A stretch of DNA of 64,000 nt from Oscillospiraceae bacterium (GTDB taxonomy: Bacteria; Bacillota; Clostridia; Oscillospirales; CAG-272), in NCBI GenBank assembly GCA_015063395.1, contig SVUF01000001.1:1336-65335 (forward strand), read 5' to 3'. The first letter of the stretch is position 1. Every line of letters begins with the position of its first letter. The translations under genes and the position numbers were made by a program. Shown one piece after another: positions 5,201-54,565 of this stretch. A model generated the notes under the pieces. It made no database searches. It worked only from the letters and a program-made list of their open reading frames with translations, and was not told where the DNA came from.

Positions 5201-5223
5201 TTTGGTTTTATAACGATTTCTAC

Positions 5224-5690
5224 GGGGAGAAACTTTTTGAAAAAAGGTTTCTCCCCGTACCCCTCTTCAAAAACTTTAGGAAATAGAGAAATTTATCGTT
5301 TTTTGCTTGTGCGCAAATTTTTCACGAATAAAATATATTTGTTTTAGGGGTGCAGCGTCACGCTGCCTTTTTGAAAAAAGGTTTCTCCCCGTACCCCTCT
5401 TCAAAAACTTTAGGAAATAGAGAAATTTATCGTTTTTTTGTTTGTGCGCAAATTTTTCACGAATAAAATATATTTGTTTTAGGGGTGCAGCGTCACGCTG
5501 CCTTTTTGAAAAAAGGTTTCTCCCCGTACCCCTCTTCAAAAACTTTAGGAAATAGAGAAATTTATCGTTTTTTTGCTTGTGCGCAAATTTTTCACGAATA
5601 AAATAATTTGTTTTAGGGGTGCAGCGTCACGCTGCTTTTTTCAAAAAGTTTCTTTGGTGGGGTAGGGCAAAGCCCCCAAAAAAATAATCA
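5224..5690. repeat. Tandem array of a ~134-bp modular intergenic repeat (three full units plus a diverged fourth start)
   Basis: The landmark tttttgaaaaaaggtttctcccc recurs at 5234, 5368 and 5503 and, diverged, at 5636 (periods 134/135/133). Each unit contains the hairpins GGGGAGAAAC..GTTTCTCCCC (complete only in unit 1) and GCAGCGtcaCGCTGC. The array ends in ggtggggtagggcaaagccccc. Confidence 0.9.
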
Positions 5691-5701
5691 AAGGAAATGA
5701 A

Positions 5702-7618: not shown

Positions 7619-8152
7619 TCAAGCTTTAAAATACCATTTCATAGGATTAGTATATATATAATTTCGTTTTGTTTCATAATCCTCTCTGTTGCGAATAATA
7701 TGTTCTGCTGAGGACCTTTGGAATATTTTTTCTATACCATATTGTTGTTTGCAAATACGGGATGTTAACGATTTAAAAGCACAGATCACATCATCCAACG
7801 TAGGGGAGGGGCTTGCTCCTCCCGCTATTTTATGCAAGAATATAATTGCGTGTATGTGGTCTGGCATAATTACATAATCCTTGATAGAAACGGTTGGAAA
7901 TCTTTTCTCTATCAAGGATAATTGTTCTTTTGCGATCTTTCCGCAGGGCTTTAGTTTTACGGTATATTCGGGAGGAGCAAGCCCCTCCCCTACGTACAAA
8001 CCGGTGGTTTTGTCTATAAAAGCGAGATCGGTTTTAATTACTTCGGACAATAGTTGTTTTCTGTCCCTTGTGCAAATAGTAACAAAATACAATTGCTTCG
8101 AACTGTAATCAAAATTCTTCAATCTGGTGGATTTTCTTTTTGGAAGTTCCAT
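7619..8152 (-). CDS. REP-associated tyrosine transposase (RAYT) / IS200-like Y1 HUH transposase family protein
   Basis: 177 aa with an HUH motif (MPDHIHAII) and a C-terminal Tyr helix (RNYIYTNPMKW). The N-terminus (RLKNFDYSSKQLYFVTICT) is typical of the COG1943/RayT family. Confidence 0.8.
   Translation of the reverse strand: MELPKRKSTRLKNFDYSSKQLYFVTICTRDRKQLLSEVIKTDLAFIDKTTGLYVGEGLAPPEYTVKLKPCGKIAKEQLSLIEKRFPTVSIKDYVIMPDHIHAIIFLHKIAGGASPSPTLDDVICAFKSLTSRICKQQYGIEKIFQRSSAEHIIRNREDYETKRNYIYTNPMKWYFKA
7798..7824. repeat. Left arm of a perfect 27-bp inverted repeat inside the RAYT ORF
   Basis: acgtaggggaggggcttgctcctcccg. The exact reverse complement is found at 7969-7995. Confidence 0.95.
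7969..7995. repeat. Right arm of a perfect 27-bp inverted repeat inside the RAYT ORF
   Basis: cgggaggagcaagcccctcccctacgt is the reverse complement of 7798-7824. The arms are separated by 144 bp. Confidence 0.95.
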
Positions 8153-8173: not shown

Positions 8174-9829
8174 TTATTGCGGCTTATAGGAATCCTTCAA
8201 GGAAACAGAACGGTTGAACGTGCTCGGGTTCTTGGTGTCGGGTGTGAAATAGCCTGTTCTTACAAATTGGAACTTGTCACCCGGCTTTGCGTCCTTGAGG
8301 GAAGCTTCTGCTTTGCAGTGTGTGAGCTTCTTTACTGAATCGGGGTTTACATAATCAAGATAATTCTCACCTTCGGGAAGAACGATCATGTCTTTTCTTG
8401 TAAACAGACGGTCATAAAGCATTACGTCAACGTCGATACACTCGGTAGCAGATACCCAATGGATCGTTCCCTTGATCTTTCTTCCGTCAACGGGATTTCC
8501 GTTTCCGCTTTCAAGGTCAGCGGTGCAGAGGATCTCCTTGATGCTTCCATCTTCGTTCTTGACAATTTCGTTGCACTTAACGATATAAGCGCCCATGAGA
8601 CGAACTTCACCGTCGGGCTTCATTCTGAAGAATTTCGGGGGAGGAACCTCGGCAAAGTCCTCGCGGTCGATGTATACTTCCCTTGTAAATGGTATCTTTC
8701 TTGTACCTGCTTCAGGGCAGTTAGGGTTATTTGTTACCTCAAAGTATTCAGTTTTGTCCTCGGGATAGTTGGTGATCACTACCTTTATAGGATCGAGAAC
8801 GCAGATACGTCTTTCTGCCTTTTGGTTCAGCTCCTCGCGCAGACAATGCTCAAGAAGCTCAATGTCAACAATGCTGTTGGCTTTGGCAACACCTGTTCTT
8901 GCGGCAAAATCAAGAATTGAGGAGGGTGTATATCCGCGGCGTCTGAGGGCCTTCAGAGTGGGCATTCTGGGGTCGTCCCAACCGTCAACTCTGCCTGTTT
9001 CAACAAGCTCGCGGAGATATCTCTTACTCATTACGGTGTAGGTCACGTTCATTCTTGCAAATTCTCTCTGCTTGGGCTTATGCTCAAATCCGATATTGTC
9101 AACTACCCACTCATAAAGAGGACGGTGGTTTTCAAATTCGATGGAGCAAAGGGAGTGCGTGATGCCCTCAAGTGCGTCCTGAATGGGATGTGCGTAGTCA
9201 TAAAGAGGATAGATGCACCACTTGTTACCCTGACGGTGATGAGTTGCTCTTACAATTCTGTAGATGGCAGGGTCGCGCATGTTAAGGTTTGGGGAAGCCA
9301 TATCGATCTTTGCTCTGAGAGTTTTTGAGCCATCGGCAAATTCACCGTTTTTCATTCTCTCAAAAAGATCAAGGTTTTCTTCGATGCTGCGGTTACGGTA
9401 GGGGCTGTCCTTGCCGGGCTCGGTAAGGGTTCCGCGGTACTCACGCATTTCGTCCTTGGAAAGATCGCAGACATATGCCTTTCCGTCCTTGATGAGCTTT
9501 ACTGCAAATTCATAGCAGGCGTCAAAATAGTCGGAGCCGTAGTAAATTCCGCCGTCGGGCTCAGCACCAAGCCACATTAGATCCTCGTAAATGGACTCTA
9601 CATATTCGTTGTCCTCTTTTGCAGGGTTGGTGTCATCATAACGGAGATTGAAAAGACCGTTGTATTTCTGTTTTGTTGAGTAGTTGATCCATATCGCCTT
9701 TGCACTTCCGATGTGAAGATATCCGTTGGGCTCGGGCGGAAAACGGGTGTGGATCTTTTCAACAGCGCCTTCAGCAAGGTCGGCGTCAATTATATCATGT
9801 ATAAAATTACCTTTGATTTCTTCTGCCAT
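8174..9829 (-). CDS. glnS: glutamine--tRNA ligase
   Basis: Class I motifs are present: RFPPEPNGYLHIGSAKA (HIGH) and VMSKR (KMSKS). The 551-aa length is typical of GlnRS. Confidence 0.93.
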   Translation of the reverse strand: MAEEIKGNFIHDIIDADLAEGAVEKIHTRFPPEPNGYLHIGSAKAIWINYSTKQKYNGLFNLRYDDTNPAKEDNEYVESIYEDLMWLGAEPDGGIYYGSDYFDACYEFAVKLIKDGKAYVCDLSKDEMREYRGTLTEPGKDSPYRNRSIEENLDLFERMKNGEFADGSKTLRAKIDMASPNLNMRDPAIYRIVRATHHRQGNKWCIYPLYDYAHPIQDALEGITHSLCSIEFENHRPLYEWVVDNIGFEHKPKQREFARMNVTYTVMSKRYLRELVETGRVDGWDDPRMPTLKALRRRGYTPSSILDFAARTGVAKANSIVDIELLEHCLREELNQKAERRICVLDPIKVVITNYPEDKTEYFEVTNNPNCPEAGTRKIPFTREVYIDREDFAEVPPPKFFRMKPDGEVRLMGAYIVKCNEIVKNEDGSIKEILCTADLESGNGNPVDGRKIKGTIHWVSATECIDVDVMLYDRLFTRKDMIVLPEGENYLDYVNPDSVKKLTHCKAEASLKDAKPGDKFQFVRTGYFTPDTKNPSTFNRSVSLKDSYKPQ

Positions 9830-9865
9830 GTTATTTTACTCCTTTTGGTTTGGATTTGTTTTTTT

Positions 9866-10033
9866 GGGGCGTTGCCCCATACCCCACCAAAGAAACTTTT
9901 TGAAAAAAGTTTCTTTGGAATCTTCAAAAACTTTTGGGATTTTGGATATGATTTAGAGGCACTGACTAAAATAAAAAGAAAACCTCAATTATAAAAGTTT
10001 TTTGATCCAAACTTTTTTACAAAAAAGTTTGGT
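9866..10033. repeat. Mosaic of hairpin repeat modules filling the gltX-glnS spacer
   Basis: The modules are ggggcgttgccccataccccacc (9866-9888), the palindrome ccaaagaaactttttgaaaaaagtttctttgg (9887-9918), cttcaaaaacttttggg, and a 39-mer at 9995-10033 that is identical to 47606-47644. Confidence 0.9.
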
Positions 10034-10053
10034 AAAAAGCCCCATTATAAATA

Positions 10054-11745
10054 TCATAAATTACAAATAAAATTTTTAATTCTTTCGTTGACCTTGTCCT
10101 GACCGATGATCTGCATTATGGTGTAGAGATCGGGTGAGTTGAGCTTGCCCGTAACAGCAACGCGCAAGAACATGCTGACGTCGCCAACGTGTCCGCGGTA
10201 GGCATCGGGGTTTGATTTATAAAGCTTAACATCGGGAGCATATCCGATCTGCTCGGAGATAGCCTTTACGTTTTCAAACCAAGCGTTGTTATCGCAGGCG
10301 GGGTCATAGGTTGTCATGAATTTTTCAAGAGCGGATTTTACATCAGCTTTTGAGAAATTTTCGGGGATCTCGTCGATGTATGAGAAATAATCGTCATAGA
10401 AAAGGGACATATAGGGCTTAACATCCGTCCATGTTGCAAAGTCCTTACGGGGCTTCTTGCCGCCTCTGCCAATTGACAGGATCGCTTTTGCATAGTCCTC
10501 GTCGGCGGTAAGCTTTTCGTAGAAGTGGGGGTCAAAGTCCTTTGCCCACAGAACAACTTCGTTGTAGACCTCTTCTGCTGTCATTCTGCAGATCACGTTT
10601 TTTGAAACGTCATTCAGCTTGTTAAAGTCGAAAAGACAGCCGGAGGTTGACATTTTTTTGATGTTGAAGGGAAATTCTGTGTATGGCTTTTCGGGATTTT
10701 GTGTGTGCCATTCCTCGTAGTTGGAGTTGAGCAGAGTCATGATATATTCGATGACAGCCTTAGGTGAATATCCCATGCGTGTATAGTCGTCCATGTTTGC
10801 GCCCATATCACGTTTTGAAAGCTTCTTTTTGTTTCCTTCCTCGTCAAGACGCATGATCTGAGCGATGTGCATATATTTTGGAAGCTTAAAGCCAAGATAT
10901 TCAAAAAGCATAATGTGACGGGGCAGGCTGGGGAGCCATTCCTCACCTCTGATTACATGTGTGGTGCCCATGAGGTGATCGTCCACTGCGTGAGCAAAAT
11001 GATATGTGGGGATTCCGTTGCTCTTGAGGAGAACCTCGTCCTTATCGTTTACGGGAAGCTCCAATGTGCCTTTGATGAGGTCGGTGATCTTTATTTTCTT
11101 TTCGGGATCATCGCATTTTGCAAGCATACGGAGTACAAATTGGTCACCGTTTGCAAGATGGGATTCAACCTCTTCTATGGTGATCTCGCGGAGCTTCAGC
11201 ATTTCAGCCATTTGTGCAGCAGTCGCTTCCTCTGTCCATTCTTTATTTTTGATCTCTGTTTTTTTGTCGGTCTTTTCAAGCTCCTCAAGCTCTTCAGCCG
11301 ATGTGAATACAGGGTAGGCAAGACCTTTTTTTACAAGCTCCTTGGCAAATACGTGGTAGATCTCTTTACGCTGACTCTGCTTGTAGGGACCGTAATCGCC
11401 CTTGGAACCAATTGCGCCGTCCTCGTTGATCACTGCGCCCTCGTCAAATTTGATGCCATAGCGTTCAAGGGTTTTTATAAGACCTTCTGCGGCGCCGGGA
11501 ACCTCTCTTTTTCCGTCGGTGTCTTCGATTCTGAGGTAAAATACACCACCCGAAAGGTGAGCAAGTCTTTCACCTACGGTTGAAGGGAAAAGACCGCCAA
11601 AATGTACAAATCCCGTGGGGCTTGGGGCAAATCTGGTAACCTTTGCTCCTTCGGGGAGCTGTCTTTTGGGGTATCTCTGCTCAATTTCCTCGGGAGTGAG
11701 TGTCACATCGGGAAAAAGCAGATCCGCAAGTTTCTGATAATCCAT
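10054..11745 (-). CDS. gltX: glutamate--tRNA ligase (long form)
   Basis: RFAPSPTGFVHFGG (HIGH-type) and KLSKRD (KMSKS) are present. The protein is 563 aa. Confidence 0.9.
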   Translation of the reverse strand: MDYQKLADLLFPDVTLTPEEIEQRYPKRQLPEGAKVTRFAPSPTGFVHFGGLFPSTVGERLAHLSGGVFYLRIEDTDGKREVPGAAEGLIKTLERYGIKFDEGAVINEDGAIGSKGDYGPYKQSQRKEIYHVFAKELVKKGLAYPVFTSAEELEELEKTDKKTEIKNKEWTEEATAAQMAEMLKLREITIEEVESHLANGDQFVLRMLAKCDDPEKKIKITDLIKGTLELPVNDKDEVLLKSNGIPTYHFAHAVDDHLMGTTHVIRGEEWLPSLPRHIMLFEYLGFKLPKYMHIAQIMRLDEEGNKKKLSKRDMGANMDDYTRMGYSPKAVIEYIMTLLNSNYEEWHTQNPEKPYTEFPFNIKKMSTSGCLFDFNKLNDVSKNVICRMTAEEVYNEVVLWAKDFDPHFYEKLTADEDYAKAILSIGRGGKKPRKDFATWTDVKPYMSLFYDDYFSYIDEIPENFSKADVKSALEKFMTTYDPACDNNAWFENVKAISEQIGYAPDVKLYKSNPDAYRGHVGDVSMFLRVAVTGKLNSPDLYTIMQIIGQDKVNERIKNFICNL

Positions 11746-14810: not shown

Positions 14811-16699
14811 TGTTTATTAAGAATTTTGATGAGCTTGCAAAAATACAGGCAAGCTGTACAACCGCTCTCAGCGGAAAATTCTCAGGCGAAGGCAACAAGC
14901 GCGCAATCGTGCTTTGCGGAGGAACAGGATGTCTTTCTTCCAATTCTGCTGATATTAAGGCGAAGATCGAGGCTAAGCTTGAGGAAAAGGGACTCACAGA
15001 CAGAGTGTCCGTAAACCTTGTTGGTTGCTTTGGATTCTGCTCACAGGGACCTTTCGTAAAGATCTATCCCGAAGATACACTTTATCGTCTTGTTACTCTT
15101 GATGATGTTGACGAGATCATTGAAAAGGATATCATCGGCGGAGAAGTAGTTGAAAGACTTCTCTATGTTGATCCCTCCACACTTGAAAAGGTAACAAAGC
15201 AGGAGGATATCAACTTCTATAAGAAGCAGGTAAGAATCAGCCTTGACGGTTGCGGCGTAATCAATCCTGAGGACATTAATGAGGCTCTTGGAGCAGGCGC
15301 ATTTGCAGGTCTTGCAAAGGCACTTCAGATGGATCGCGCAGACGTAATCAAGGAAGTACTTGATTCCGGACTCAGAGGCCGTGGAGGCGGCGGATTCCCT
15401 ACAGGAAGAAAGTGGCAGTTCGCATATGCTCAGCCCGACGGCGAAAAGTATGTAGTATGTAACGGTGACGAGGGCGACCCCGGTGCGTTCATGGACCGTT
15501 CCATTCTTGAAGGTAACCCCCTTGCAGTTATCGAAGGTATGGCTATCGCAGGTTATGCAATCGGTGCACAGAACGGTTACTTCTATGTAAGAGCAGAGTA
15601 CCCCATTGCTGTAAACCGTCTCAGACTTGCAATCAAGCAGGCTGAAGAGGTCGGACTTCTCGGAGACAATATTCTCGGAACAGACTTCTCCTTCCGTGCG
15701 CACATCAGACTTGGTGCAGGTGCGTTTGTATGCGGAGAGGAAACAGCTCTTCTTAACTCTATTGAAGGACAGAGAGGTATGCCCAGACCCCGTCCTCCGT
15801 TCCCTGCAGTTAAGGGACTTTGGGAATGTCCTACAATCGTTAACAACGTTGAATCACTTGCGTGTGTTCCTTACATACTTCGTAACGGCGCTGAAAAGTT
15901 TGCTCAGTACGGTACAGAGAAGTCCAAGGGTACAAAGGTATTTGCGCTTGGCGGTAAGGTAAACAACGTAGGTCTTGTTGAAATTCCTATGGGAACAACT
16001 CTCCGTGAGCTTATCTATGATATCGGCGGCGGAATCCCGGATGGAAAGAAGTTCAAGGCAATCCAGACAGGCGGACCTTCAGGCGGATGTCTTACAGAAA
16101 AGGATCTTGACGTAGCTATCGACTTTGATAGCCTTGTTGCTAAGGGCTCAATGATGGGTTCAGGCGGAGCTATCGTAATGGACGAGGACAACTGTATGGT
16201 TGACGTTGCTAAGTTCTATATGGAATTTATCTGCGACGAGTCCTGCGGTAAGTGTACACCTTGCCGTGTTGGTACAAAGAGACTTCTTGAATACCTTGAG
16301 AAGATCTGTGACGGTAAGGCAACAATGCAGGATCTTGAGGAGCTTGAGGCTCTTGCTGAGACAATCAAGGCAGGATCACTTTGCGCTCTCGGACAGACAG
16401 CAGCAAACCCTGTACTTTCAACACTCAAGTCATTCAGAGACGAATACATCGCTCATATCGTTGACAAGAAATGTCCCGCAAAGGTATGTAAGAACCTTAT
16501 GTCTTACGCTATCGATCCCGACAAGTGCGTAGGATGCGGACTTTGCGAAAGACAGTGTCCCGTATCTGCAATCATTAAGACAGATTACGTTGCACCCGGT
16601 CACAAGCTTCCTTCAAGAAAGATTCTTGATGACAAGTGTATCAAGTGCGGTTTGTGTATGTCTTCTTGTAAGAAGTTCAATGCTATTGAAAAGAAATAA
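14810..16699 (+). CDS. hydB: NuoF-like flavoprotein subunit (NAD(P)-binding, FMN, Fe-S) of the [FeFe]-hydrogenase (HydB type)
   Basis: GLRGRGGGGFPTGRKW, CNGDEGDPGAF, ESCGKCTPCR and two C-terminal CxxCxxCxxxCP ferredoxin motifs are present, together with an N-terminal [2Fe-2S] thioredoxin-like domain. Confidence 0.9.
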   Translation: MFIKNFDELAKIQASCTTALSGKFSGEGNKRAIVLCGGTGCLSSNSADIKAKIEAKLEEKGLTDRVSVNLVGCFGFCSQGPFVKIYPEDTLYRLVTLDDVDEIIEKDIIGGEVVERLLYVDPSTLEKVTKQEDINFYKKQVRISLDGCGVINPEDINEALGAGAFAGLAKALQMDRADVIKEVLDSGLRGRGGGGFPTGRKWQFAYAQPDGEKYVVCNGDEGDPGAFMDRSILEGNPLAVIEGMAIAGYAIGAQNGYFYVRAEYPIAVNRLRLAIKQAEEVGLLGDNILGTDFSFRAHIRLGAGAFVCGEETALLNSIEGQRGMPRPRPPFPAVKGLWECPTIVNNVESLACVPYILRNGAEKFAQYGTEKSKGTKVFALGGKVNNVGLVEIPMGTTLRELIYDIGGGIPDGKKFKAIQTGGPSGGCLTEKDLDVAIDFDSLVAKGSMMGSGGAIVMDEDNCMVDVAKFYMEFICDESCGKCTPCRVGTKRLLEYLEKICDGKATMQDLEELEALAETIKAGSLCALGQTAANPVLSTLKSFRDEYIAHIVDKKCPAKVCKNLMSYAIDPDKCVGCGLCERQCPVSAIIKTDYVAPGHKLPSRKILDDKCIKCGLCMSSCKKFNAIEKK

Positions 16700-20691: not shown

Positions 20692-20910
20692 TAAATAAAT
20701 TAACCAAAAAGCTTTGGCTGTTTGGAAAAGCAAAGGGAACTTTTTATAAAAAAGTTCCCTTTGTAAAAGTTTAATGTTTTAATCAAAGTATTAAAAATCT
20801 GAAAAATTGATGCTTTTATCAAAATATTAAAATATAAAAAAGCAAAAAAGGTTATTAAATTTTGGTTTGGAGCAAAGCTCTGAAAAAGAAAAGCAAAGAT
20901 GGGGGAAGAA

Positions 20911-40890: not shown

Positions 40891-41514
40891 ATGAATGACA
40901 ATCAATTAAAAGAAAATAATGATATTCGTGACGTATCGCTTAAAAACAAAACGGTGGTGACACCGGAGGTTTACTGCGAATTTTCCGACCACAGCATGGA
41001 TTTTTGCAAAGGCAGTCTTGCTATGAAAAAATTATCAAAAATTCTCAATTTGATCTTATTGACGATTTTAAAGTTATGCATAGAGATTGGTGGCGGTCTG
41101 ATTATAATTAACTTTTTTTCAAGATTTGAAGGTACTTTGGAGTATCTGAAAATCTTTATCTACGCTGTAGTATTGTCAATTCTGCTCATAATTCTTAATT
41201 ACTTTGACTATATCAGCTTCAGCAAGAAGATCAATAGATTTTTCTTTAAAAACTACAAAACAATTAATACAGAATATACGTTCAGGGATAACGGTTTTAC
41301 CGACGTTTCCGTAAGGGGTAAAAAGACGAAAACAATAAACGTTCCCTACCGCAAGATCAAGTACGTTTATGAAATAGAAAACCTTATTCTGCTGTATAAC
41401 ACCCCTTTCTCTGCCTATATCGTACAAAAAAACGGATTTGAAACTGCTGAGGATCTTGAGGCTTTTTGCGGAATTTTAAAAAGAAAAATCACCAAAAACA
41501 ACTATTTAAAATAG
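40891..41514 (+). CDS. YcxB-like membrane protein (two TM helices plus a C-terminal YcxB-type domain)
   Basis: Two central TM helices, then VPYRKIKYVYEIENLILLYNTPFSAYIVQKNGFETAEDLEAFCGILKRK, a pattern I associate with PF14317. Confidence 0.5.
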   Translation: MNDNQLKENNDIRDVSLKNKTVVTPEVYCEFSDHSMDFCKGSLAMKKLSKILNLILLTILKLCIEIGGGLIIINFFSRFEGTLEYLKIFIYAVVLSILLIILNYFDYISFSKKINRFFFKNYKTINTEYTFRDNGFTDVSVRGKKTKTINVPYRKIKYVYEIENLILLYNTPFSAYIVQKNGFETAEDLEAFCGILKRKITKNNYLK

Positions 41515-41547
41515 CAGTCCACGGCTGCAGGGAAAAGCCAGACTCCA
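41507..41547. repeat. 41-nt direct repeat, copy 1 (overlaps the stop codon of the upstream ORF)
   Basis: taaaatagcagtccacggctgcagggaaaagccagactcca. Compare copy 2 at 41606-41646. Confidence 0.85.
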
Positions 41548-41605
41548 CACGAGTGCGGCTTTTTGTAGCTTTTCAACTTTATACTTCAGCATTTTCCTAT
41601 ATAGT

Positions 41606-41646
41606 AAAATAGCAGCCCACGGCTGCAGGGGGAAAGCCAGACTCCA
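41606..41646. repeat. 41-nt direct repeat, copy 2
   Basis: taaaatagcagcccacggctgcagggggaaagccagactcca, which contains the hairpin gcagcc-ca-cggctgc. Confidence 0.85.
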
Positions 41647-43090: not shown

Positions 43091-45700
43091 ATGAATAAGT
43101 ATTTAAACCATAGTGACGAAAACCTTGTTGAGCTGTCTTTGCTTGGAAACCAAGCGGCATTTGAAGAGCTTGTCAGAAGACATGAGGGCGCAGTAATGGG
43201 AACGGCGTATAAGGTAACGGAAAACCGATTTTCTGCACAGGATGCTTCACAGGACGCCTTTGTATGCGCTTGGATAAATCTTGATAAGCTTCAGAAACGA
43301 GGCAGCTTTGGGTCGTGGGTATGTAATATAGCGAGAAATAAGGCGTATAAGCTTGTGGCGCATTACAGAAACGCCATACCCGATATAAGCCTTGACGTTA
43401 TGAAAATTATGTCTGCCACAGATGAAGAAAACGAGGAGCTTATGGAAATGCTTGGTCTTTCTGATTATTCCCGTGATGAGGAGCTGTCGGAGCTTCGCTT
43501 GGCAGTGGAAGCTCTCAGTGAAAAGATCAGACAGACGGTAAAGCTGCATTATTTTGAAGGACTTTCCGTAATGGAGATTTCAAAGCGTCTGTTTATACCC
43601 GTAGGAACGGTAAAATACAGACTCAGTGAGGGGCGTAAGCAACTGAGAAAGGAATATGGAATTATGGAAAAGACATACGATGAAAACGAAAGCATAAAGG
43701 ATCGTGTAATGAGACATGTTGAGCAGTTGAAGCTTTGGAGAATAAGGGAAGACCGTACGGGCTTTGAGGCAGAATACCGACAGGTTCTTGAGGCTGTTGA
43801 AAATCTTGAGGAGTCAATTGAAAAGAAATATGCTCTTGCAGACGTACTCAGGGCAGGATATTGGTGGATTCCCGGCGAAAAGAACGATGAGATTCTTGAA
43901 AGAATGAAGACGGCGGCTCTTGAAAGCCACAACGAAGAGGTCATGGAAACCGTAATTGCCGTTGAGGAAGAAAGATACAGCGGCGCAGAAAAGCTGAAGT
44001 TCATGGAGGAAACACAGATCCCTTGGCTTCGCGACAACGGATTTACAGATGCTCTGGCATATGCTTATTTCTGGTACGGCTACTATCAGGGTAATGAGGG
44101 TAACTATGAGAAATTAGTAGACTCATATAAAAAGGTACTGGAGCTTCTTACACCCGATAAGCTATACTATGCCAATACACTCGCGGCATTGGAGCTTGAA
44201 GAAAAGCTTCATTCTCTTGGAGAAATCGACAATTTCAAATATTCGATGAGAGCAACGGGCGAGGTATATAAGTATATAGACGGTAAGCTCTATTTCTGGA
44301 CGCAGCCGGGATATAACAGAGGATACTTTGAGTCTGTTGACGACTGTCTGTTCTGGAATTGTTCAAGAATTGGCAAAATGATCCTTGATCCTGAAATGAA
44401 GCAGGGAGAGGTCAAGACCTCCAAGGACGGATTGAGCAAAATTACATGTAAGGATAAAAATGCAGTAATAGAAACTCCTGCAGGTAGGTTTGAAAATTGC
44501 AGCGTATACGTTTTAGAAGGCAATTTTTACGGAAGAACCTATTGTGAAACCGCCTTTGCGCCCGATGTGGGAATTGTAAGTCAGACCTTGAATAATTACG
44601 GTTCAAGGGATACATGGCTTTTGAAGGAGTATGAGATCCATGGCGGCGAGGGCTTGTTCCCCATGGGAACGGGCAATAAATGGAGCTATACCGTAGATAA
44701 CCCCGAGGGCATGGAGCTTGAGGTTCTGAATACCTTTGAGATTACAGGCTCCGATGGCAACAGCGCAACTGTAAAGTCATGTGCCTTTAGTATGCTTTTG
44801 AACTATGATGATTCATGGATGGGCAATATACTTAAAATGAGAAATAATTATGCAGAGCAAGAGGGAAATGACGGTCGACTTCTTGACGTTAGTCATGAGA
44901 TGAAGCGTGCTGCCGAGCTTGCAGTAACCAAGAGACAAAAGGTTCATACCGCAATTGCCAACGAGGTAATGGAAAGAATCTTTGATACCGACGAGAATTT
45001 CAATCCCGAATATACCGAAAGAGGACTCTGGAACTTCTTTGAGTACTGTCCCGTACAGCGTGAAAACGGTAAGGTAAGGATGGACTGTGACAGAAGCTAT
45101 TCGTTTGAGTGGAAGGAGGTAGGCGATTGGTCGGGAGAAAGATTCAAGCTTCTTTACAGCTTCCTTTACGATATTCTGTGCGATGCCGCAGGATGCGTAT
45201 GGAGCGACGAATGGGTTCCCGGCTATCACCGTGACGAGAAGAAAGATTCACATTGGAACGGCGCACAGCATCTTATTTTCGACGTTCTTGAGGATGAAAA
45301 GGTCATCACCAAGGCAGGAGAATTTGAAAACTGCCGTCATATAAAGCTCAGCCTTGTGGGATTAAACGGCGGATACGGATACCGTGGCGGTCATATGGAA
45401 TACTGGTTTGCTCCCGAGGTTGGAATAGTTAAGTTCTCACGTCCCTACGGCGAGGGTGGAAAGCTTGATTGCATCTGGGAGCTGACGGACTACAGGGGAA
45501 AGGGAGAGGGCTATTTCCCCACAGATGACGGACTTTTCCGCAGATACGAGCCCACAGAGCTTGGCAGTGGATATCACGGATCCGTTGAATACACCTTTGA
45601 TACCGATGAAAACGGAACGGTAATGTTCCGCAACGCCCTTGGAACACAGGACAGAGCAGATTTTGAGGCATTTCGCAGGGCAAAAGAGAATAAACAATAA
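43091..45700 (+). CDS. ECF-type sigma-70 family factor fused to a ~670-aa C-terminal extension of unknown function
   Basis: Residues ~1-190 carry region 2 (FEELVRRHEGAVMGTAYKV..DASQDAFVCAW) and region 4 (LHYFEGLSVMEISKRLFIPVGTVKYRLSEGRKQL). The remainder has no hydrophobic TM stretch and contains an internal duplication (AG.FENC...FAP.VGIV). Confidence 0.75.
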   Translation: MNKYLNHSDENLVELSLLGNQAAFEELVRRHEGAVMGTAYKVTENRFSAQDASQDAFVCAWINLDKLQKRGSFGSWVCNIARNKAYKLVAHYRNAIPDISLDVMKIMSATDEENEELMEMLGLSDYSRDEELSELRLAVEALSEKIRQTVKLHYFEGLSVMEISKRLFIPVGTVKYRLSEGRKQLRKEYGIMEKTYDENESIKDRVMRHVEQLKLWRIREDRTGFEAEYRQVLEAVENLEESIEKKYALADVLRAGYWWIPGEKNDEILERMKTAALESHNEEVMETVIAVEEERYSGAEKLKFMEETQIPWLRDNGFTDALAYAYFWYGYYQGNEGNYEKLVDSYKKVLELLTPDKLYYANTLAALELEEKLHSLGEIDNFKYSMRATGEVYKYIDGKLYFWTQPGYNRGYFESVDDCLFWNCSRIGKMILDPEMKQGEVKTSKDGLSKITCKDKNAVIETPAGRFENCSVYVLEGNFYGRTYCETAFAPDVGIVSQTLNNYGSRDTWLLKEYEIHGGEGLFPMGTGNKWSYTVDNPEGMELEVLNTFEITGSDGNSATVKSCAFSMLLNYDDSWMGNILKMRNNYAEQEGNDGRLLDVSHEMKRAAELAVTKRQKVHTAIANEVMERIFDTDENFNPEYTERGLWNFFEYCPVQRENGKVRMDCDRSYSFEWKEVGDWSGERFKLLYSFLYDILCDAAGCVWSDEWVPGYHRDEKKDSHWNGAQHLIFDVLEDEKVITKAGEFENCRHIKLSLVGLNGGYGYRGGHMEYWFAPEVGIVKFSRPYGEGGKLDCIWELTDYRGKGEGYFPTDDGLFRRYEPTELGSGYHGSVEYTFDTDENGTVMFRNALGTQDRADFEAFRRAKENKQ

Positions 45701-45762: not shown

Positions 45763-47490
45763 TCAGTCTACATTTGAAATGGCATTGATCATTTCCGTAA
45801 CCTTTGCCTTGATAAGCTCTGCCGCGTTGTCTGCGGTGAGATCTACGGTAAAGGACTTATCTCTTGCGGAAAGCTCAATTGCTCCTCGTTCAAGAGTTCT
45901 TGGGCTGACAACTGCACGGAGAGGTACGCCTATAAGGTCTGCATCTGCAAACATAGAGCCTGCACCGATGTTTCTGTCATCATAGATAACCTCAACGCCA
46001 AGCTTTTTCAGATCCTCATAGAGCTTATCCGCTGTCTTTCTTACATTTTCATCGTCAACACGGAGAGCGCAGAGCTGAACCTGCCACGGTGCTATGGTAA
46101 TGGGCCAGATAGGTCCAAACTTGTCACGGCGTACCTGACATACGGAGGCGATAAGTCTTCCCACACCGATACCGTAACAGCCCATAATGGGGCACTGAAG
46201 CTCGCCGTTGCTGTCAAGGTACTGAAGTCCCATGGATTCTGTATATTTTGTTCCAAGCTGGAATATATTACCAACCTCAATACCGCGGCTGATCTTAATG
46301 GAATGCTTGCCGCAAACAGGACATATACCGCCCTCAAATGCTTTTGCAACGCTTACGTATTCAACATCTCCAATATCACGAGCCATATTCATTCCAACAT
46401 AGTGGTAGTCGGTCTTGTTAGCCCCCGCAACGAAGCTTTCAAGAGTGCGAAGTGACTCGTCATATACAACGGTAACGCCCTCGGGGAGTCCCTTGGGTCC
46501 TATATATCCTGCGCAAACCCCCATTTCCTCGGTGACGATTGCAGGGTGGATATCTGCCTTCAAGTGATTCTTGAGCTTTGTTTCGTTTACGTCAAGGTCA
46601 CCTCTCAGGAATACGATAACAAGGGAATCGTCAACGTTTCTCTGATAAAGCACTGCCTTGCATGAATTGATGGCAGGCTTCTTGAGGTATGTACATACCT
46701 CCTCAATTGTTTTATATCCGGGTGTGTGAACCTCGGCAAGCTCTTCAACTCCGCAGGGAGCATTTTCAACAATGCAGTCAGCCGCTTCCATATTGGAACG
46801 GTAATTACATTCGGGACAGATCACAATTGTGTCCTCACCGATGTCTGTAAGAAGCATGAATTCATGGGAAACGCGTCCGCCCATCATGCCCGAGTCGGAT
46901 TTAACTGCCACGACCTCCGGTACTCCGCAGCGTGCGAAAATACGCTCGTAGGCATGGTAGCAAATCTCATAGTACTTTTCAAGATCCTCTTGTGAGGTGT
47001 GGAAGGAGTATGCATCCTTCATTGTAAATTCACGGGTACGGATAAGTCCTCCGCGGGAACGGGGCTCATCTCTGAACTTGGTCTGGATCTGGTAGATCAT
47101 GAACGGATATTTTGCATATGACTGAGCCACATCTCTTACGATCTGAACAGCCGCTTCCTCATGTGTCATTCCAAGGACCATATCAATGCCGTTTCTGTCC
47201 TTGAAGCGCAGAAGCTCGGATCCGATGGAATCAAAACGTCCCGATTCCTGCCACAATGCTCCGGGCATTACTACGGGGAACAATACCTCCTGTCCGTCGA
47301 TTCTGTCCATTTCCTCTCTCATGATGGTTTCGATCTTGTGGGCGATACGCTTTGTTGCAGGGAACATTGAGAATACTCCTGTTCCAACAGGCTTGATATA
47401 TCCGCCCCTCATCATAAGTGACTGGCTTTCAATTATACAATCGGCAGGAGCTTTTTTTTCGGTTTTAAATAATAATTGCTGTACCTTCAT
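45763..47490 (-). CDS. proS: proline--tRNA ligase (bacterial type with an editing insertion)
   Basis: 575 aa. The N-terminus (ESQSLMMRGGYIKPVGTGVFSMFP) and the class II motifs and anticodon-binding C-terminus are typical of ProRS. Confidence 0.92.
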   Translation of the reverse strand: MKVQQLLFKTEKKAPADCIIESQSLMMRGGYIKPVGTGVFSMFPATKRIAHKIETIMREEMDRIDGQEVLFPVVMPGALWQESGRFDSIGSELLRFKDRNGIDMVLGMTHEEAAVQIVRDVAQSYAKYPFMIYQIQTKFRDEPRSRGGLIRTREFTMKDAYSFHTSQEDLEKYYEICYHAYERIFARCGVPEVVAVKSDSGMMGGRVSHEFMLLTDIGEDTIVICPECNYRSNMEAADCIVENAPCGVEELAEVHTPGYKTIEEVCTYLKKPAINSCKAVLYQRNVDDSLVIVFLRGDLDVNETKLKNHLKADIHPAIVTEEMGVCAGYIGPKGLPEGVTVVYDESLRTLESFVAGANKTDYHYVGMNMARDIGDVEYVSVAKAFEGGICPVCGKHSIKISRGIEVGNIFQLGTKYTESMGLQYLDSNGELQCPIMGCYGIGVGRLIASVCQVRRDKFGPIWPITIAPWQVQLCALRVDDENVRKTADKLYEDLKKLGVEVIYDDRNIGAGSMFADADLIGVPLRAVVSPRTLERGAIELSARDKSFTVDLTADNAAELIKAKVTEMINAISNVD

Positions 47491-47522
47491 ATTTTCTCTC
47501 CTTTTTACTTTAGGTTATTTTA

Positions 47523-47664
47523 GGGGAACTTTTTTTCAAAAAGTTCCCCTATAACCCCTCAAAAACTTTTGGAATTGTTGTATAAATAACTGAATCCTTT
47601 TATTGAAGTTTTTTGATCCAAACTTTTTTACAAAAAAGTTTGGTGGGTGTGGGGCAAAGCCCCA
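47523..47664. repeat. Mosaic of hairpin repeat modules filling the thrS-proS spacer (same architecture as 9866-10033)
   Basis: The modules are ggggaactttttttcaaaaagttcccc (47523-47549), cccctcaaaaacttttgg, a 39-mer at 47606-47644 identical to 9995-10033, and ggtgggtgtggggcaaagcccca (47642-47664). Confidence 0.9.
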
Positions 47665-47674
47665 TACTAAACAA

Positions 47675-49450
47675 TTAATCTTTGATCTGATCAAGAGCAG
47701 TGATGAGGTCGAGGGATTTTTCCTCGTTCATCTGCTCGGACATTTTGAGGAATGTGGTGTAGGGAATGCCGTTGAGGCTCTTGCCGCCGCGGATGTTGAG
47801 GGAAACTGCCTCTTCCTGAACTTCCTTGTCGCCGATTACAATTACATAGGGAAGTCTTTCGTTCTTGTACTTCTTGATCTTTTCCTTCATGTTGGAATCG
47901 GAGGTGTCGAGCTCATAGCGGATCTTCTTCTTTCTGAAGATTGCTGCAAGCTTTTCAGCATATTCGTTATGCTCGGGGCGGATGGGAACTATGCCTACCT
48001 GAACGGGAGATACCCAATAGGGGAATGCGCCCTTGAAGTTTTCGATGAGGATTCCGAGGAATCTTTCCATTGAACCGTAGATTACGCGGTGAATGATAAC
48101 AGGGGTCTTCTGTGAGCCGTCGGAATCGGTGTAAGTGATGTCAAAATTACGGGGGAGCTGGAAGTCGAGCTGGATGGTACCCATCTGCCACTGACGCTTC
48201 AGAGCGTCCTTCATCATAATGTCGATCTTGGGACCGTAGAATGCGCCGTCGCCTTCGTTGATGTCATAGCCGCCCTCACCGTATCTTGCGTCGAGAATAG
48301 CCTTAAGAGCTGTTTCGGCCTTATCCCAAAGTTCAATGTCGCCCATAAAGTCATCGGGTCTTGTGGAAAGCTCGGGACGGTATTCAAGACCGAAGATTCC
48401 GTAGAATTTGTCAGCGATGTCGAGGATCGCGTTAACCTCGTCAAAGATCTGATTTTCGGTAATGAAGTTGTGTGAGTCGTCCTGACGGAACATCTGAACT
48501 CTGAGAAGTCCGTTTAGCTCACCTGACTTTTCCTTTCTGTGAAGAACGTCGCAGTCGGAAAGTCTGAGGGGAAGCTCTCTGTAGGAGCGGCCCTTTCTCT
48601 TGTAAACGATAATTGAGTTGGGGCAGTTCATGGGCTTTACGCCGTAGGTTGTGTTCTCATCGATATTGATGGTGAACATATTGTGCTGATAGTGATCCCA
48701 GTGTCCCGAAGTAACCCAAAGAGAGTTGGAGTTGATGATGGGAGAAGAGATCTCCTGATATCCGCGAGCCTCGTGCTCCTCGCGCCAGAAATCGAGAATG
48801 AGGTTGAAGAGCTTCCAGCCCTTTGGAAGCCAATAAGGCATACCGGGGGCAGTTTCGTCCATAAAGAACAGATCAAGCTGAGGACCGAGCTTTCTGTGGT
48901 CGCGTTCCTTTGCTTCTTCAAGGAACTTGAGATGCTCTTTCAGCTCATCCTTGGACTTAAATGCGAACACATAGATTCTCTGGAGGTTTTCTCTCTTTTC
49001 GTCGCCTCTCCAATATGCGCTGGAGCAGGATTTGATCTTGTAGGCGCAGTTGAGAAGATCCTGTGAGTTGTCAACGTGAGGGCCACGGCAAAGATCCACA
49101 AAATCGTTGCCTGTTTTGTAGATCGTGATCTTTTCGTTCTCGGGAAGATCGTTGATAAGCTCCACCTTAAAGGGCTGATCTGCAAAAAGCTCAAGGGCAG
49201 CCTCACGGCTGAGCTCTTCACAGGTGAAGTCCTCTTTACGTCTGAGGATCTCTCTCATTTTATCTTCGATCTTTGGGAAGTCCTCTGAAGTAATGGATTG
49301 GGGAAGCAAAAAGTCATAGTAGAAGCCCTCGTCGATCTGCGGACCGATTGCAAGCTTTGTGTTTTCCTTACCGTATATTTCGGTAACGGCTTTAGCAAGA
49401 ATGTGAGCTAAAGAGTGACGGAAACACTGATTGAAAATTTCCTTGTTCAT
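47675..49450 (-). CDS. thrS: threonine--tRNA ligase (short form; begins at the editing domain with no N-terminal TGS domain)
   Basis: The editing-domain HSLAHILAKAV lies at the extreme N-terminus. A class II core and an anticodon-binding C-terminus follow. A T-box leader with an ACC specifier lies upstream. Confidence 0.92.
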   Translation of the reverse strand: MNKEIFNQCFRHSLAHILAKAVTEIYGKENTKLAIGPQIDEGFYYDFLLPQSITSEDFPKIEDKMREILRRKEDFTCEELSREAALELFADQPFKVELINDLPENEKITIYKTGNDFVDLCRGPHVDNSQDLLNCAYKIKSCSSAYWRGDEKRENLQRIYVFAFKSKDELKEHLKFLEEAKERDHRKLGPQLDLFFMDETAPGMPYWLPKGWKLFNLILDFWREEHEARGYQEISSPIINSNSLWVTSGHWDHYQHNMFTINIDENTTYGVKPMNCPNSIIVYKRKGRSYRELPLRLSDCDVLHRKEKSGELNGLLRVQMFRQDDSHNFITENQIFDEVNAILDIADKFYGIFGLEYRPELSTRPDDFMGDIELWDKAETALKAILDARYGEGGYDINEGDGAFYGPKIDIMMKDALKRQWQMGTIQLDFQLPRNFDITYTDSDGSQKTPVIIHRVIYGSMERFLGILIENFKGAFPYWVSPVQVGIVPIRPEHNEYAEKLAAIFRKKKIRYELDTSDSNMKEKIKKYKNERLPYVIVIGDKEVQEEAVSLNIRGGKSLNGIPYTTFLKMSEQMNEEKSLDLITALDQIKD

Positions 49451-49499: not shown

Positions 49500-49714
49500 C
49501 GCCTAAAAATAAAGAAAGCATCCTTAATTGATCCCGAAAGGGAAAAATTTAAGGACGCAATTTATGCGCGGTTCCACCTTAATTGTATGAAAACATACCA
49601 CTCATTTAATGTATAACGATGTCAAAAGCGAAGTGGTTTCGACGCTTGGGGCTTTTACTGCACTCACACCAACGGCAGCTCTCTGCGAAAAGCTTGTCAA
49701 GGCTACTTGTCTTC
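49500..49714 (-). promoter_or_regulatory. T-box riboswitch leader (Thr-specific) of thrS
   Basis: On the minus strand: an AGAGA/GA motif, a GGUGUGAG distal-loop-like motif, the specifier context GAA-ACC-A (ACC = complement of 49635-49637), the T-box sequence AATTAAGGTGGAACCGCG (complement of 49567-49584), and a terminator gcgtccttaa...ttaaggatgc followed by a U-run (49506-49558). Confidence 0.85.
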
Positions 49715-49720
49715 TCGGTG

Positions 49721-49749
49721 ATTATAGCATTTTCTTTATATTTTGTCAA
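49721..49749 (-). promoter_or_regulatory. consensus sigma-A promoter of the thrS T-box leader
   Basis: On the minus strand: TTGACA (49749-49744), a 17-nt spacer, then TATAAT (49726-49721). Confidence 0.7.
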
Positions 49750-51652: not shown

Positions 51653-52150
51653 ATGATAAAATTTGAAGGCAGTTTATCAGAGACTTGCTATAAATTTTTT
51701 GTAAAGGCAAGGTTTAAATATGCTATAAAGGGTTGGCTTATTGTGGAGATATTCTTTTTATGTCCATTTTTAACTTTGGCTCTATTATTTGATTCTCCTG
51801 AGTGGCACATATTTTACATATGTATTGTTGCAGTTTGTTCACTTGGTTTAGGTTTATTGTTTTTGCTTCCACCATTAAAATATAATTACGAAAATGTCGT
51901 ACCCAAAAAAGTTGTTTTTTACGAGGATGGACATATGCAGGCTCAAACAAAAAACCTTAAGGAACACAGAACAATTGACAATGTAAAGTATGTTGTTGAT
52001 TTTGGCGAGGGCTATTTTATATATTTTGATTGGTGGCACAAAAGCATATCTTTTATCTGTCAAAAGGATTTAGTATCTGAAGATAGCATAGAAAAATTCG
52101 AGAAACTTTTTGAAGGCAGAATTGAACGTGTTCAGAATAAAAATAAATAA
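51653..52150 (+). CDS. YcxB-like membrane protein (paralogue of 53975-54475)
   Basis: Two TM helices, then ...FICQKDLVSEDSIEKFEKLFEGRIERVQNK. The C-terminus is near-identical in pattern to the 53975 product. Confidence 0.5.
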   Translation: MIKFEGSLSETCYKFFVKARFKYAIKGWLIVEIFFLCPFLTLALLFDSPEWHIFYICIVAVCSLGLGLLFLLPPLKYNYENVVPKKVVFYEDGHMQAQTKNLKEHRTIDNVKYVVDFGEGYFIYFDWWHKSISFICQKDLVSEDSIEKFEKLFEGRIERVQNKNK

Positions 52151-52167
52151 GAGAGCAGGTGAATTAT

Positions 52168-52500
52168 ATGAAAAACAATCGTAAAAACCGAATTGTGCAA
52201 TTATGTATGAGTATTATCCCACTGTTTTCAACGTTATTTATAGCAATAACAACATTTGTTGCAATTTCAAAAATCCAAGATACTAAGGTTAAGGACAAAA
52301 TATATCTAACTCTTGGTTCTATTTGTTTGATTTCAGGATTGCTTAGCAGTCTTTTGAACAGATATCTGATTTACAATCAAGAAATATTGATTAGAGTTGC
52401 AATCACCGGCTGTGTGTTGTTTCTCTTTAATTGTGTTTTTGTTGTTATTCAAAGAAAATGTGAGAACATAATTTCAAACGAAAAAGATTCAAACGAATGA
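52168..52500 (+). CDS. small membrane protein (3 TM), function unknown
   Basis: ATG 52168 (the track start at 52159 is GTG). The sequence is hydrophobic and the gene is tightly spaced in the island. Confidence 0.45.
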   Translation: MKNNRKNRIVQLCMSIIPLFSTLFIAITTFVAISKIQDTKVKDKIYLTLGSICLISGLLSSLLNRYLIYNQEILIRVAITGCVLFLFNCVFVVIQRKCENIISNEKDSNE

Positions 52501-52579
52501 AATTTTAGATTAAAGTTGATAATTGCGAAGATATTATAGAAAGGATCATTATATATCATTTCGTGAGGTATTTAATACG

Positions 52580-53701: not shown

Positions 53702-53974
53702 AAAAGGATTCATAATACATAAAAAATTAAGATAAATCACCGGCAATATCATAAATCACTGTAAAAATTACTAAAATTTACAGAAATCTCATCGATTATC
53801 CCAAAAAATCGTTAATTATCCCAAATCGTTGACTTTTTTCTCAATTTATGTTACCGTATAAGCGGAAAAAGGTCAAACGTGGTATGGGGTGACGGACTGA
53901 AGAGTTACAATGGTTCAGCCGCCATTACAACAATCATTTCATCCGTAAACTTAACATATAAGGAGGTACACAAT

Positions 53975-54475: not shown

Positions 54476-54565
54476 AAAAAGAGACCATTAGGAACGTTCT
54501 CATAAGGATGTTTACAAATGTTGTTTTCTCTGCCGATTTGTGTTATAATGGTGGCAGCAAAAAAG

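Follow-up and report, generated by a model that had tools for sequence, protein, structure and literature searches.

Two spacers between tandem aminoacyl-tRNA synthetase (aaRS) genes, gltX|glnS and thrS|proS, in a 64,000-nucleotide (nt) stretch of the Oscillospiraceae contig SVUF01000001.1 (the window) are occupied over their whole length by copies of one structured element. As we found, copies of this element are dispersed, lie strictly between genes, and differ in presence among relatives, and its hairpins are maintained by compensatory change. We read it, with a probability of roughly 70%, as a lineage-specific, non-coding, interspersed mosaic repeat of the REP/BIME/REPIN type that also resembles the pneumococcal BOX element. 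The element appears to be a new family within an already known kind of repeat, not the required terminator/promoter cassette that had been proposed when the same DNA was read from its letters (the sequence-only reading).

All four synthetase genes lie on the minus strand and matched NCBIfam models: gltX at 10054-11745 (TIGR00464, 296 bits), glnS at 8174-9829 (770 bits), thrS at 47675-49450 (632 bits), and proS at 45763-47490 (650 bits). The GlnRS and ProRS proteins of the window are 100% identical to those of a Ruminococcaceae/Oscillospiraceae metagenome-assembled genome (MAG). The gltX|glnS spacer (spacer 1) spans 9830-10053 (224 nt), and the thrS|proS spacer (spacer 2) spans 47491-47674. Direct reading and NCBIfam agreed with the sequence-only reading that the four genes share a strand and the two spacers a common architecture, and every module it had named was visible in both spacers. 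The 39-mer it had called identical is indeed exact in both (9995-10033 = 47606-47644): the 38-mer at its core, AAGTTTTTTGATCCAAACTTTTTTACAAAAAAGTTTGG, occurs exactly twice in the window (at 9995 and 47606), compared with 0.00 occurrences expected from 100 dinucleotide shuffles, and over 45 nt the two spacers still match at 96% identity. For the palindrome core AACT5..A5GTT, five occurrences were counted in the window (0.00 expected from shuffles). The 26-nt palindrome within the 39-mer had been described as perfect; the palindrome stood but its perfection did not, as 12 nt on each side flank a non-palindromic AC center (24/26 positions complementary). Relative to shuffled sequence, both spacers are strongly folded as RNA (z = -4.2 and -4.0, respectively), as is a further copy at 20731-20881 (z = -5.3).

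The five modules previously distinguished are two copies of one asymmetric unit of ~85 nt, inverted relative to each other. From its beginning, the unit consists of a box, AAAGTTTT(T)(T)GA (AAAGTTTTTTGA in the basic ~85-nt unit), an AT-rich palindrome (variable clamp, T5-7, 0 to 2 nt, A5-7, and clamp'), a GGYGGAG-like linker, a 7-bp GC hairpin, and an A/T-rich tail. Alignment of nine units gave the consensus cATATyCAAAGTTTTTTGAT-CCAAAC-T6-7-N-C-A6-GTTTGG-yGGAGc-(7-bp hairpin, 3-nt loop)-A/T-rich. In composite copies, the GC hairpins point outward and the boxes inward, and each aaRS spacer contains a TCAAAAACTTTTGG box (9924-9937 and 47559-47572). The features of the two spacers, with units scored by a covariance model (R1), are as follows.

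9830-10053 (no strand): composite copy 1, the whole gltX|glnS spacer, consisting of two inverted units.
9851-9946 (-): spacer 1 unit (R1, 41.5 bits, E = 9e-9).
9859-9886 (-): linker TGGGGTAT, GC hairpin GGGGCAACGCCCC (9866-9878), and then A7, in gene-strand order, read from the sequence.
9887-9918 (no strand): 32-nt perfect AT-rich palindrome, CCAAAGAAAC-T5-G-A6-GTTTCTTTGG, with a 10-bp clamp that is all Watson-Crick.
9919-9937 (+): box AATCTTCAAAAACTTTTGG, the reverse complement of the (-)-unit box AAAGTTTTTGA, read from the sequence.
9938-9992 (no strand): AT-rich filler between the two units, part of which (GGATTTTGGATATGATTT) is also found in the copies of two related contigs, L003 and L004.
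9983-10058 (+): spacer 1 unit (R1, 64.4 bits, E = 3e-15).
9993-10033 (+): box AAAAGTTTTTTGAT and 26-nt palindrome CCAAAC-T6-AC-A6-GTTTGG, holding the 39-mer, read from the sequence.
10034-10045 (+): degenerate remnant of a GC hairpin, AAAAAGCCCCAT, with its left arm deleted (nine-unit alignment).
47491-47674 (no strand): composite copy 2, the whole thrS|proS spacer, in the inverted-pair layout of copy 1 (R1).
47521-47551 (no strand): perfect palindrome TAGGGGAAC-T7-C-A5-GTTCCCCTA, ending 35 nt before the proS ATG on the gene strand.
47558-47572 (+): box CTCAAAAACTTTTGG, read from the sequence.
47594-47678 (+): spacer 2 unit (R1, 93.2 bits, E = 2e-23).
47603-47644 (+): box and 26-nt palindrome, with the 39-mer inside, read from the sequence.
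47644-47665 (+): linker TGGGTGT and GC hairpin GGGGCAAAGCCCC (47651-47663), from the sequence and the alignment.

The degenerate hairpin that had been claimed at 10034-10045 was thus borne out, and spacer 1 was found to carry a second, intact GC hairpin (9866-9878) that was missing from the earlier list. The ribosome-binding site and ATG of glnS lie 37 nt past this hairpin on the gene strand, and the unit end that includes it (9859-9886) is an 86% match to the equivalent end at 5635-5684. In spacer 2, the module at 47644-47665 ends 11 nt short of the thrS stop codon, which is on the opposite strand. A second R1 match in this spacer, 47500-47570, scored 25.5 bits on the plus strand compared with 14.4 bits on the minus strand; although the model prefers the former, this unit is probably a minus-strand one, since its box is 3' of its palindrome.

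Across the nine-unit alignment, 100% of the cells in the GC hairpin are paired, and four of its seven pairs have changed on both sides, giving a covariation score that was reached by 0 of 500 shuffles. G:T pairs are tolerated in this hairpin on the forward strand only, and its 5' flank reads GG(A/G)G(C/T)N. The AT-rich palindrome varies differently. In all sequence compared, a script that counted clamp pairs found nine different clamps (e.g., ccaaac, ccaaagaaac, ggggaac, gtaagaaaac, gtaaaaaccc, cgacc, and caagc), all of them Watson-Crick at positions 1 to 5 with no G:T pair there. As judged from these sequences, such perfection argues for a hairpin formed at the DNA level, or for a copying mechanism, over a structure formed in RNA only.

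Two further copies were located in the window, at the sites of two related palindromes (5224-5256 and 20735-20759) that had been noted previously and are real.

5201-5701 (no strand): further copy between tpiA and a polysaccharide-biosynthesis gene (repeat search, R1).
20731-20881 (+): older, degenerate copy between the gene for a Bmp-family binding protein and its ABC-ATPase gene (R1, 22 bits, E = 0.003).

The copy at 5201-5701 begins with palindrome 5224-5256 and a box, followed by ~3.5 tandem copies of a 135-nt unit; palindrome 5224-5256 belongs to this array. Each 135-nt repeat carries a GCAGCG-TCA-CGCTGC hairpin and then a T-run (5352, 5487, 5621), and the final forward unit (5636-5684) ends with hairpin GGGCAAAGCCC and A7, 24 nt ahead of the ATG at 5702. 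In the copy at 20731-20881, a palindrome (20731-20763) and AT filler lead to hairpin GGAGCAAAGCTCT (20869-20881), beyond which come an A-run and a ribosome-binding site. All copies in the window are intergenic: R1 matches were confined to four spacers, and the window is 88% coding. Between co-oriented genes the median gap is 42.5 nt, but these four spacers measure 184 to 501 nt; together they give a local density of 4 loci and, at minimum, 9 units in 64 kb. Separately, the segment 43003-43036 (AAAGCCCCAAAAAACAAAAGG...AAAAGGA) resembles the hairpin/A-run/ribosome-binding-site end that precedes glnS and matches 9840-9873 with 76% complementarity; it could be the remnant of half a unit. The gene downstream of it (43091-45700) encodes 869 amino acids (aa), with an N-terminal extracytoplasmic function-type sigma-70 domain (regions 2 and 4) and a long uncharacterized C-terminal part.

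Comparison with related loci (numbered L001 to L019) showed how the element came to lie between gltX and glnS. Among the nearest relatives that could be retrieved, L007 (GlnRS 84% identical) has a gap of 12 nt between these two genes, and L009 and L011 (GlnRS 80% identical) have one of 10 nt; in all three, a metallo-beta-lactamase-fold gene lies upstream, as in the window. The mosaic is absent from this junction in all three orthologous spacers, and the 224-nt spacer of the window therefore arose by insertion into a closely packed operon. The adjacency of thrS and proS, on the other hand, is not conserved in relatives and is a synteny novelty of the window species; the proS genes of relatives have their own TTGACT or TTGACA promoter (with TATAAT), and that of L016 also has a T-box-like motif.

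An exact scan found the 26-mer palindrome in one species-representative genome, Oscillospiraceae MAG SIG655 (L001), and in five contigs of the metagenome assembly JAEIGA01 (L002 to L006). R1 units were present at the four sites of the window and in L001 to L006, L017, and L019, in the related loci also between called genes, whereas R1 gave no match with an E value of <1 in ~99 kb from relatives L007 to L016. The 38-nt core is 97 to 100% identical between the window and the contigs of other organisms. The absence of the mosaic between gltX and glnS in relatives, its recurrence at four sites between genes of the window, and its presence in other Oscillospiraceae assemblies uphold the view of the sequence-only reading that this is a portable, modular, BIME-like mosaic. 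Copy number also differs at orthologous positions. L002 and L017 are syntenic at gyrA-x-recA, where the spacer upstream of recA comprises 120 bp and 1 unit in L017 versus ~660 bp and at least 3 units in L002. In the origin region, the L004 spacer between dnaA and dnaN holds ~330 extra bp that include an inverted unit pair and are absent in L017 and L018. Tandem units were also seen in L004 (915-1000 and 1039-1110), together with a ~110-nt duplication, and solo units were seen in L001, L006, L017, and L019. Inverted (-)/(+) pairs with their boxes inside were found at five loci, and their arms are 49 to 61% identical, i.e., they represent two subtypes. An assembly artifact was ruled out by the occurrence of the element in independent assemblies. 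Two scans of viral contigs for a phage association gave nothing real (no match and one chance 19-mer).

Several further observations were made in these related loci. The origin region of L004 (4600-5223 and 1735-3225) is heavily infiltrated by hairpin repeats compared to L017, L018, and L019: its ~330 extra bp separate dnaN from the DnaA-trio/AT-rich unwinding region, and its dnaA-rpmH spacer is ~1.2 kb long versus ~0.45 kb in the other three. Other repeat families, e.g., GCCTTCCCCAGCGGGGAAGGTGGCA, recur across L002, L003, and L004. L012 (Logan contig SRR25400508_373484), which is of the same species as the window (ProRS 99% identical), has its position 1 at window position ~47370, ~120 nt from the thrS|proS repeat, and the DnaA-bearing contigs of the repeat-rich relatives are mostly short (1.7 to 5 kb). 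Small repeats of this kind break metagenome assemblies, and both the L012 break and the short DnaA contigs are consistent with repeats breaking short-read assemblies. Finally, a look-alike was noted in L009 at 16535-16625 (same sequence in L011 at 10292-10309), consisting of GAAAGTTTTGATGG, then AGAGGGCAC-T5-C-A4-GTGCGCCTCT, and then a T-run. It is terminator-like, lies on the strand opposite both flanking genes, and occurs in relatives otherwise devoid of the family; R1 does not detect it, and its homology is uncertain.

The layout of the composites raises the question of a classical MITE (a miniature transposable element of the inverted-repeat type), that is, a deletion derivative of an insertion sequence (IS) with terminal inverted repeats, served in trans by a DDE transposase and generating target-site duplications. 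The inverted pairs do resemble long terminal inverted repeats, the copies are intergenic only and present or absent between relatives, and an assembly breaks nearby (L012, beside copy 2). The element also shares with the Correia (Neisseria) and RUP (pneumococcus) MITEs a size of 100 to 200 bp, an inverted-repeat appearance, a location between co-transcribed genes, and the potential to form long RNA hairpins when transcribed by read-through. We nevertheless regard this explanation as very unlikely, because the arms of a pair are of different subtypes where near-identical terminal repeats are required, solo units occur, and tandem amplification of internal modules is not MITE-like. No target-site duplication, of TA or otherwise, was visible at the composite ends, and the element has no known parent IS. 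No IS/DDE transposase was found among the Pfam domains of the called genes in the fetched loci or the scanned open reading frames (ORFs) of the window, although no dedicated IS search was made; the nearest to IS domains in the fetched loci were weak IstB_IS21 ATPase-type matches on PhoH- and DnaA-like proteins.

The sequence-only reading had reasoned that both spacers lie where a terminator for the upstream gene and a promoter for the downstream gene would be needed. On the coding (-) strand of 9830-10053 and 47491-47674, consensus scans found neither a sigma-70-type promoter (-35 and -10 hexamers 16 to 18 nt apart) nor an intrinsic terminator (GC stem-loop with an immediate U-tract). Past the gltX and thrS stop codons, a GC hairpin is followed by a 9- to 12-nt linker before any T-run, and before glnS, the GC hairpin is followed by A7 with no U-tract. 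The clade uses a standard promoter consensus (e.g., TTGACA-17-TATAAT upstream of thrS and rpmH). The downstream genes had been said to have no T-box, and neither spacer gave a match to RF00230 even at E ≤ 1. One T-box alone is present in the window; it lies upstream of thrS (49548-49722, minus strand; 85.4 bits, gathering score of 93; E = 4e-17), with an apparent ACC (Thr) specifier, and is preceded by a perfect TTGACA-17-TATAAT promoter (~49717-49745). Over the units, Rfam 15 gave 0 matches at the gathering score and, at E ≤ 1, only chance microRNA matches at 5207-5273; no tRNA or transfer-messenger RNA genes were found. The argument from need therefore fared differently at the two loci. It is not supported for gltX|glnS, which is an operon with a 10- to 12-nt gap in relatives and carries no coding-strand signal. 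At thrS|proS, by comparison, neither a promoter nor a T-box could be recognized for proS itself, which follows thrS, a gene under T-box control; promoter activity within this spacer is therefore possible, though the scan was negative.

These results bear on a functional expression cassette, in which the reverse unit would end the upstream transcript and the forward unit would provide a promoter and/or a 5' untranslated region hairpin that stabilizes the mRNA. Forward units end 17 to 37 nt upstream of the start codons of at least eight genes, among them glnS, the gene at 5702, proS, and the ABC-ATPase gene. Other units lie upstream of recA (L002, L017) and dnaN (L004), the L001 unit lies ~130 nt upstream of an XRE-family helix-turn-helix regulator gene, and two unit positions are conserved between species (recA and a gene shared by L004 and L019). 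However, roughly half of the units point at the 3' end of a convergent gene. The JAEIGA contigs have a TATAAT after the hairpin, 22 to 25 nt before the ATG, but no -35 hexamer is found 16 to 18 nt from it, that place being taken by the hairpin. In addition, the orthologous L017 unit has ATTCGAT in place of TATAAT, and hairpin and conserved -10 are separated by 11 versus 23 nt at the L004/L019 gene. Across the box and palindrome center of the L017 recA unit, we found TTGAAA-N17-TATAAA; TATAAA centers, however, lack the final T of a -10 hexamer and were not called by the scan. The restriction of G:T wobbles in the GC hairpin to the forward strand would suit a cassette, as would proS having no promoter or T-box of its own behind thrS whereas its relatives have a promoter. 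The same is true of the three canonical terminator-like GCAGCG hairpins on the tpiA strand in the 5201-5701 array, which are look-alikes of intrinsic terminators; the units share GC hairpins and T/A runs with such signals. Yet the aaRS-spacer hairpins differ from terminators, promoters, and T-boxes in having no coding-strand U-tract, no passing -35/-10 pair, and no T-box, and the ancestral gltX-glnS operon needed neither signal. We consider a cassette function unlikely, though still a live alternative.

More specific regulatory readings were also tried. The palindrome as an UP-like element (~-62 to -37) combined with the TATAAT that follows the hairpin in JAEIGA contigs was rejected as a general explanation because there is no -35 hexamer, the TATAAT is not conserved (L017 recA unit), and the distance from hairpin to -10 varies (L004/L019). 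With the box taken as -35 and the palindrome center as -10, the spacing is 17 nt in four long-clamp variants but 11 nt in the CCAAAC variant, and none of the palindrome centers (TTCAAA, TTGAAA, and TATAAA) has both the A at position 2 and the T at position 6 that were required. Resemblances to LexA (GAAC-N4-GTTC), CodY-box, and hix/gix-like sites were set aside for misfit of geometry, the half-sites being 13 to 14 nt apart.

Finally, a host protein could bind the element at its dispersed sites, be it a nucleoid-associated protein, a global regulator, or the RNA polymerase alpha subunit (the element then being an UP element); conservation would in that case be for sequence and not for mobility. 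The near identity of the 38-nt core between the window and the contigs of other organisms would agree with this, as would a motif like AAAAAnTTTGGAT, which, as read from the copies, repeats with a period of ~15 nt. The palindrome may also resemble the UP-element subsites of Escherichia coli, and it would be located at ~-62 to -37 from the JAEIGA TATAAT. However, the clamps are wholly different between copies and yet perfectly self-complementary, which is unexpected for a sequence-specific protein site; there is no fixed spacing to the nearest -10; and the family is absent from close relatives that are expected to share host proteins. We consider this explanation extremely unlikely.

RAYTs mobilize REP and REPIN hairpins, and one gene of this kind lies next to glnS in the window.

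7619-8152 (-): RAYT-like (REP-associated tyrosine, HUH/Y1) transposase ORF, 177 aa, 21 nt downstream of glnS.

This ORF matched NCBIfam NF047646 (E = 7e-18; 65 bits, with a cutoff of 80), Pfam Y1_Tnp (E = 0.003), and PDB entry 4ER8 (E. coli TnpArep; E = 5e-5), and its HUH motif (PDHIHAI) and catalytic-tyrosine motif (YIYTNP) are intact. Its flanks, of 21 and 44 nt, contain no unit; the nearest copy (copy 1) is 1.7 kb away. No other RAYT was found in the 236 kb of window and related sequence that were searched. Its proximity makes the gene a candidate mobilizer of the repeat. Group 1 RAYTs have been reported in Clostridia, and only Groups 2 and 3 are clearly linked to REPINs (PMC5581495). The ORF also contains a perfect 27-nt inverted repeat, ACGTAGGGGAGGGGCTTGCTCCTCCCG, with arms at 7798-7824 and 7969-7995, each of which is a GTAG-tagged hairpin. 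Translated in frame, the arms read YVGEGLAPP and AGGASPSPT. Homologues keep VGxGLAP and GGASPxPT, and the reverse-complementary coding pair therefore seems characteristic of the family, which is very large.

Among known systems, the mosaic is most readily compared with REP, BIME, and REPIN elements: it consists of short extragenic hairpin repeats that are present or absent between relatives and lie inside operons without abolishing them. As in BIMEs, which alternate REP types, unlike unit types stand in inverted orientation with linkers between them, and REPINs are likewise inverted doublets; as in the REPIN-RAYT systems of Pseudomonas and E. coli, a RAYT-family gene is nearby in the window. 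Unlike the GC-rich, imperfect palindromes of REP, however, the main palindrome is AT-rich, with a T-run/A-run center, and perfect. REP sequences are defined by a GTAG (or CGTC) tetranucleotide at the end of a GC-rich imperfect palindrome (PMC3733652), whereas no such tag is conserved here, GTAG being found in one copy only (5661-5664). The host also differs, being a Clostridium-class Firmicute, and its RAYT-like gene is not flanked by repeats. The BOX element of Streptococcus pneumoniae (boxA-boxB(n)-boxC) offers a second parallel, since it is a modular Firmicute mosaic with variable tandem internal modules, to which the 135-nt array and the ~110-nt duplication of L004 may be compared, and is intergenic, often near gene starts, stably structured by prediction, and without a transposase of its own. 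The likeness to BOX is one of architecture (no similarity in sequence was looked for or found), and the module grammar (inverted unit pairs, AT palindrome, and GC hairpin) is different.

In the mosaic-repeat reading, two unlike unit subtypes typically pair in inverted orientation around a short AT filler, and internal modules can be amplified in tandem. Copies were inserted into intergenic DNA, including the thrS|proS junction and a gltX-glnS junction that formerly measured 10 to 12 nt. Spread would probably proceed via single-stranded DNA hairpins recognized by a Y1/HUH transposase, and the RAYT-like gene offers itself as the candidate enzyme. Transcription at the aaRS loci would neither end nor start in the element, which would be carried along in a read-through mRNA. 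REP/BIME and Correia hairpins act as mRNA-end protectors or processing sites, and if the hairpins of the mosaic have any effect, it would most plausibly be of this kind.

Several points weigh against reading the element as a mobile mosaic repeat of this type. Elements of this type are numerous (tens to hundreds per genome), and copies were counted here in 64 kb of this genome only. At the ends of either composite, we found no target-site duplication or exact insertion boundary, and there is no same-species empty site for comparison. The hallmarks of REP are missing, namely the conserved GTAG tag and a GC-rich, imperfect main palindrome, which is AT-rich and perfect here. The RAYT-like gene is not directly flanked by units, scores below the NCBIfam cutoff, and belongs to an enormous family (15,787 clusters at E ≤ 1e-3). 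Group 1 RAYTs, those reported in Clostridia, are not known to have REPIN partners (PMC5581495), and the window gene may or may not belong to this group. In addition, units hold their position across species upstream of recA (L002, L017) and of another gene (L004, L019), which points to retention by function over pure selfish turnover.

A bolder reading, which we think rather improbable, is that the mosaic is the missing cargo of a clostridial RAYT, i.e., a Firmicutes system similar to REPINs but made of AT-rich perfect palindromes and a GC hairpin, and that the host has co-opted it as a cassette for operon punctuation. The long AU hairpin would then be a processing site, and the GC hairpin, with GGAG before it and an A-rich stretch after it, would form a protective 5' end near the downstream ribosome-binding site. 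If true, such a cassette would uncouple glnS from gltX, and proS from thrS with its Thr T-box.

As a mosaic repeat, the element adds an undescribed interspersed family from uncultured Oscillospiraceae (gut or rumen Clostridia). REP/BIME-type elements and their mobilizers are poorly known in Firmicutes, and the repeat and its RAYT-like neighbor form a candidate enzyme-substrate pair. A repeat within the junction of an essential aaRS operon that remains intact is a natural test case for whether such insertions are tolerated or exploited for differential expression. The two spacers also correct a tempting inference, in that a structured aaRS spacer need not be a terminator/promoter module.

Other repeats were noted elsewhere in the window. 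A direct repeat of ~41 nt (41507-41547 and 41605-41646; 93% identical, 98 nt apart) lies in the 269-nt spacer before the gene at 41784; both of its copies carry a GCAGCC-CAC-GGCTGC hairpin and are unrelated to the mosaic family. The region 52001-54000 is low in GC (0.30 versus ~0.43 elsewhere in the window). ORFs 51653-52150 and 53879-54475 share, at their 3' ends, a 97-nt direct repeat (52051-52147 and 54382-54478; 74% identical), a sign that the two genes may be paralogous.

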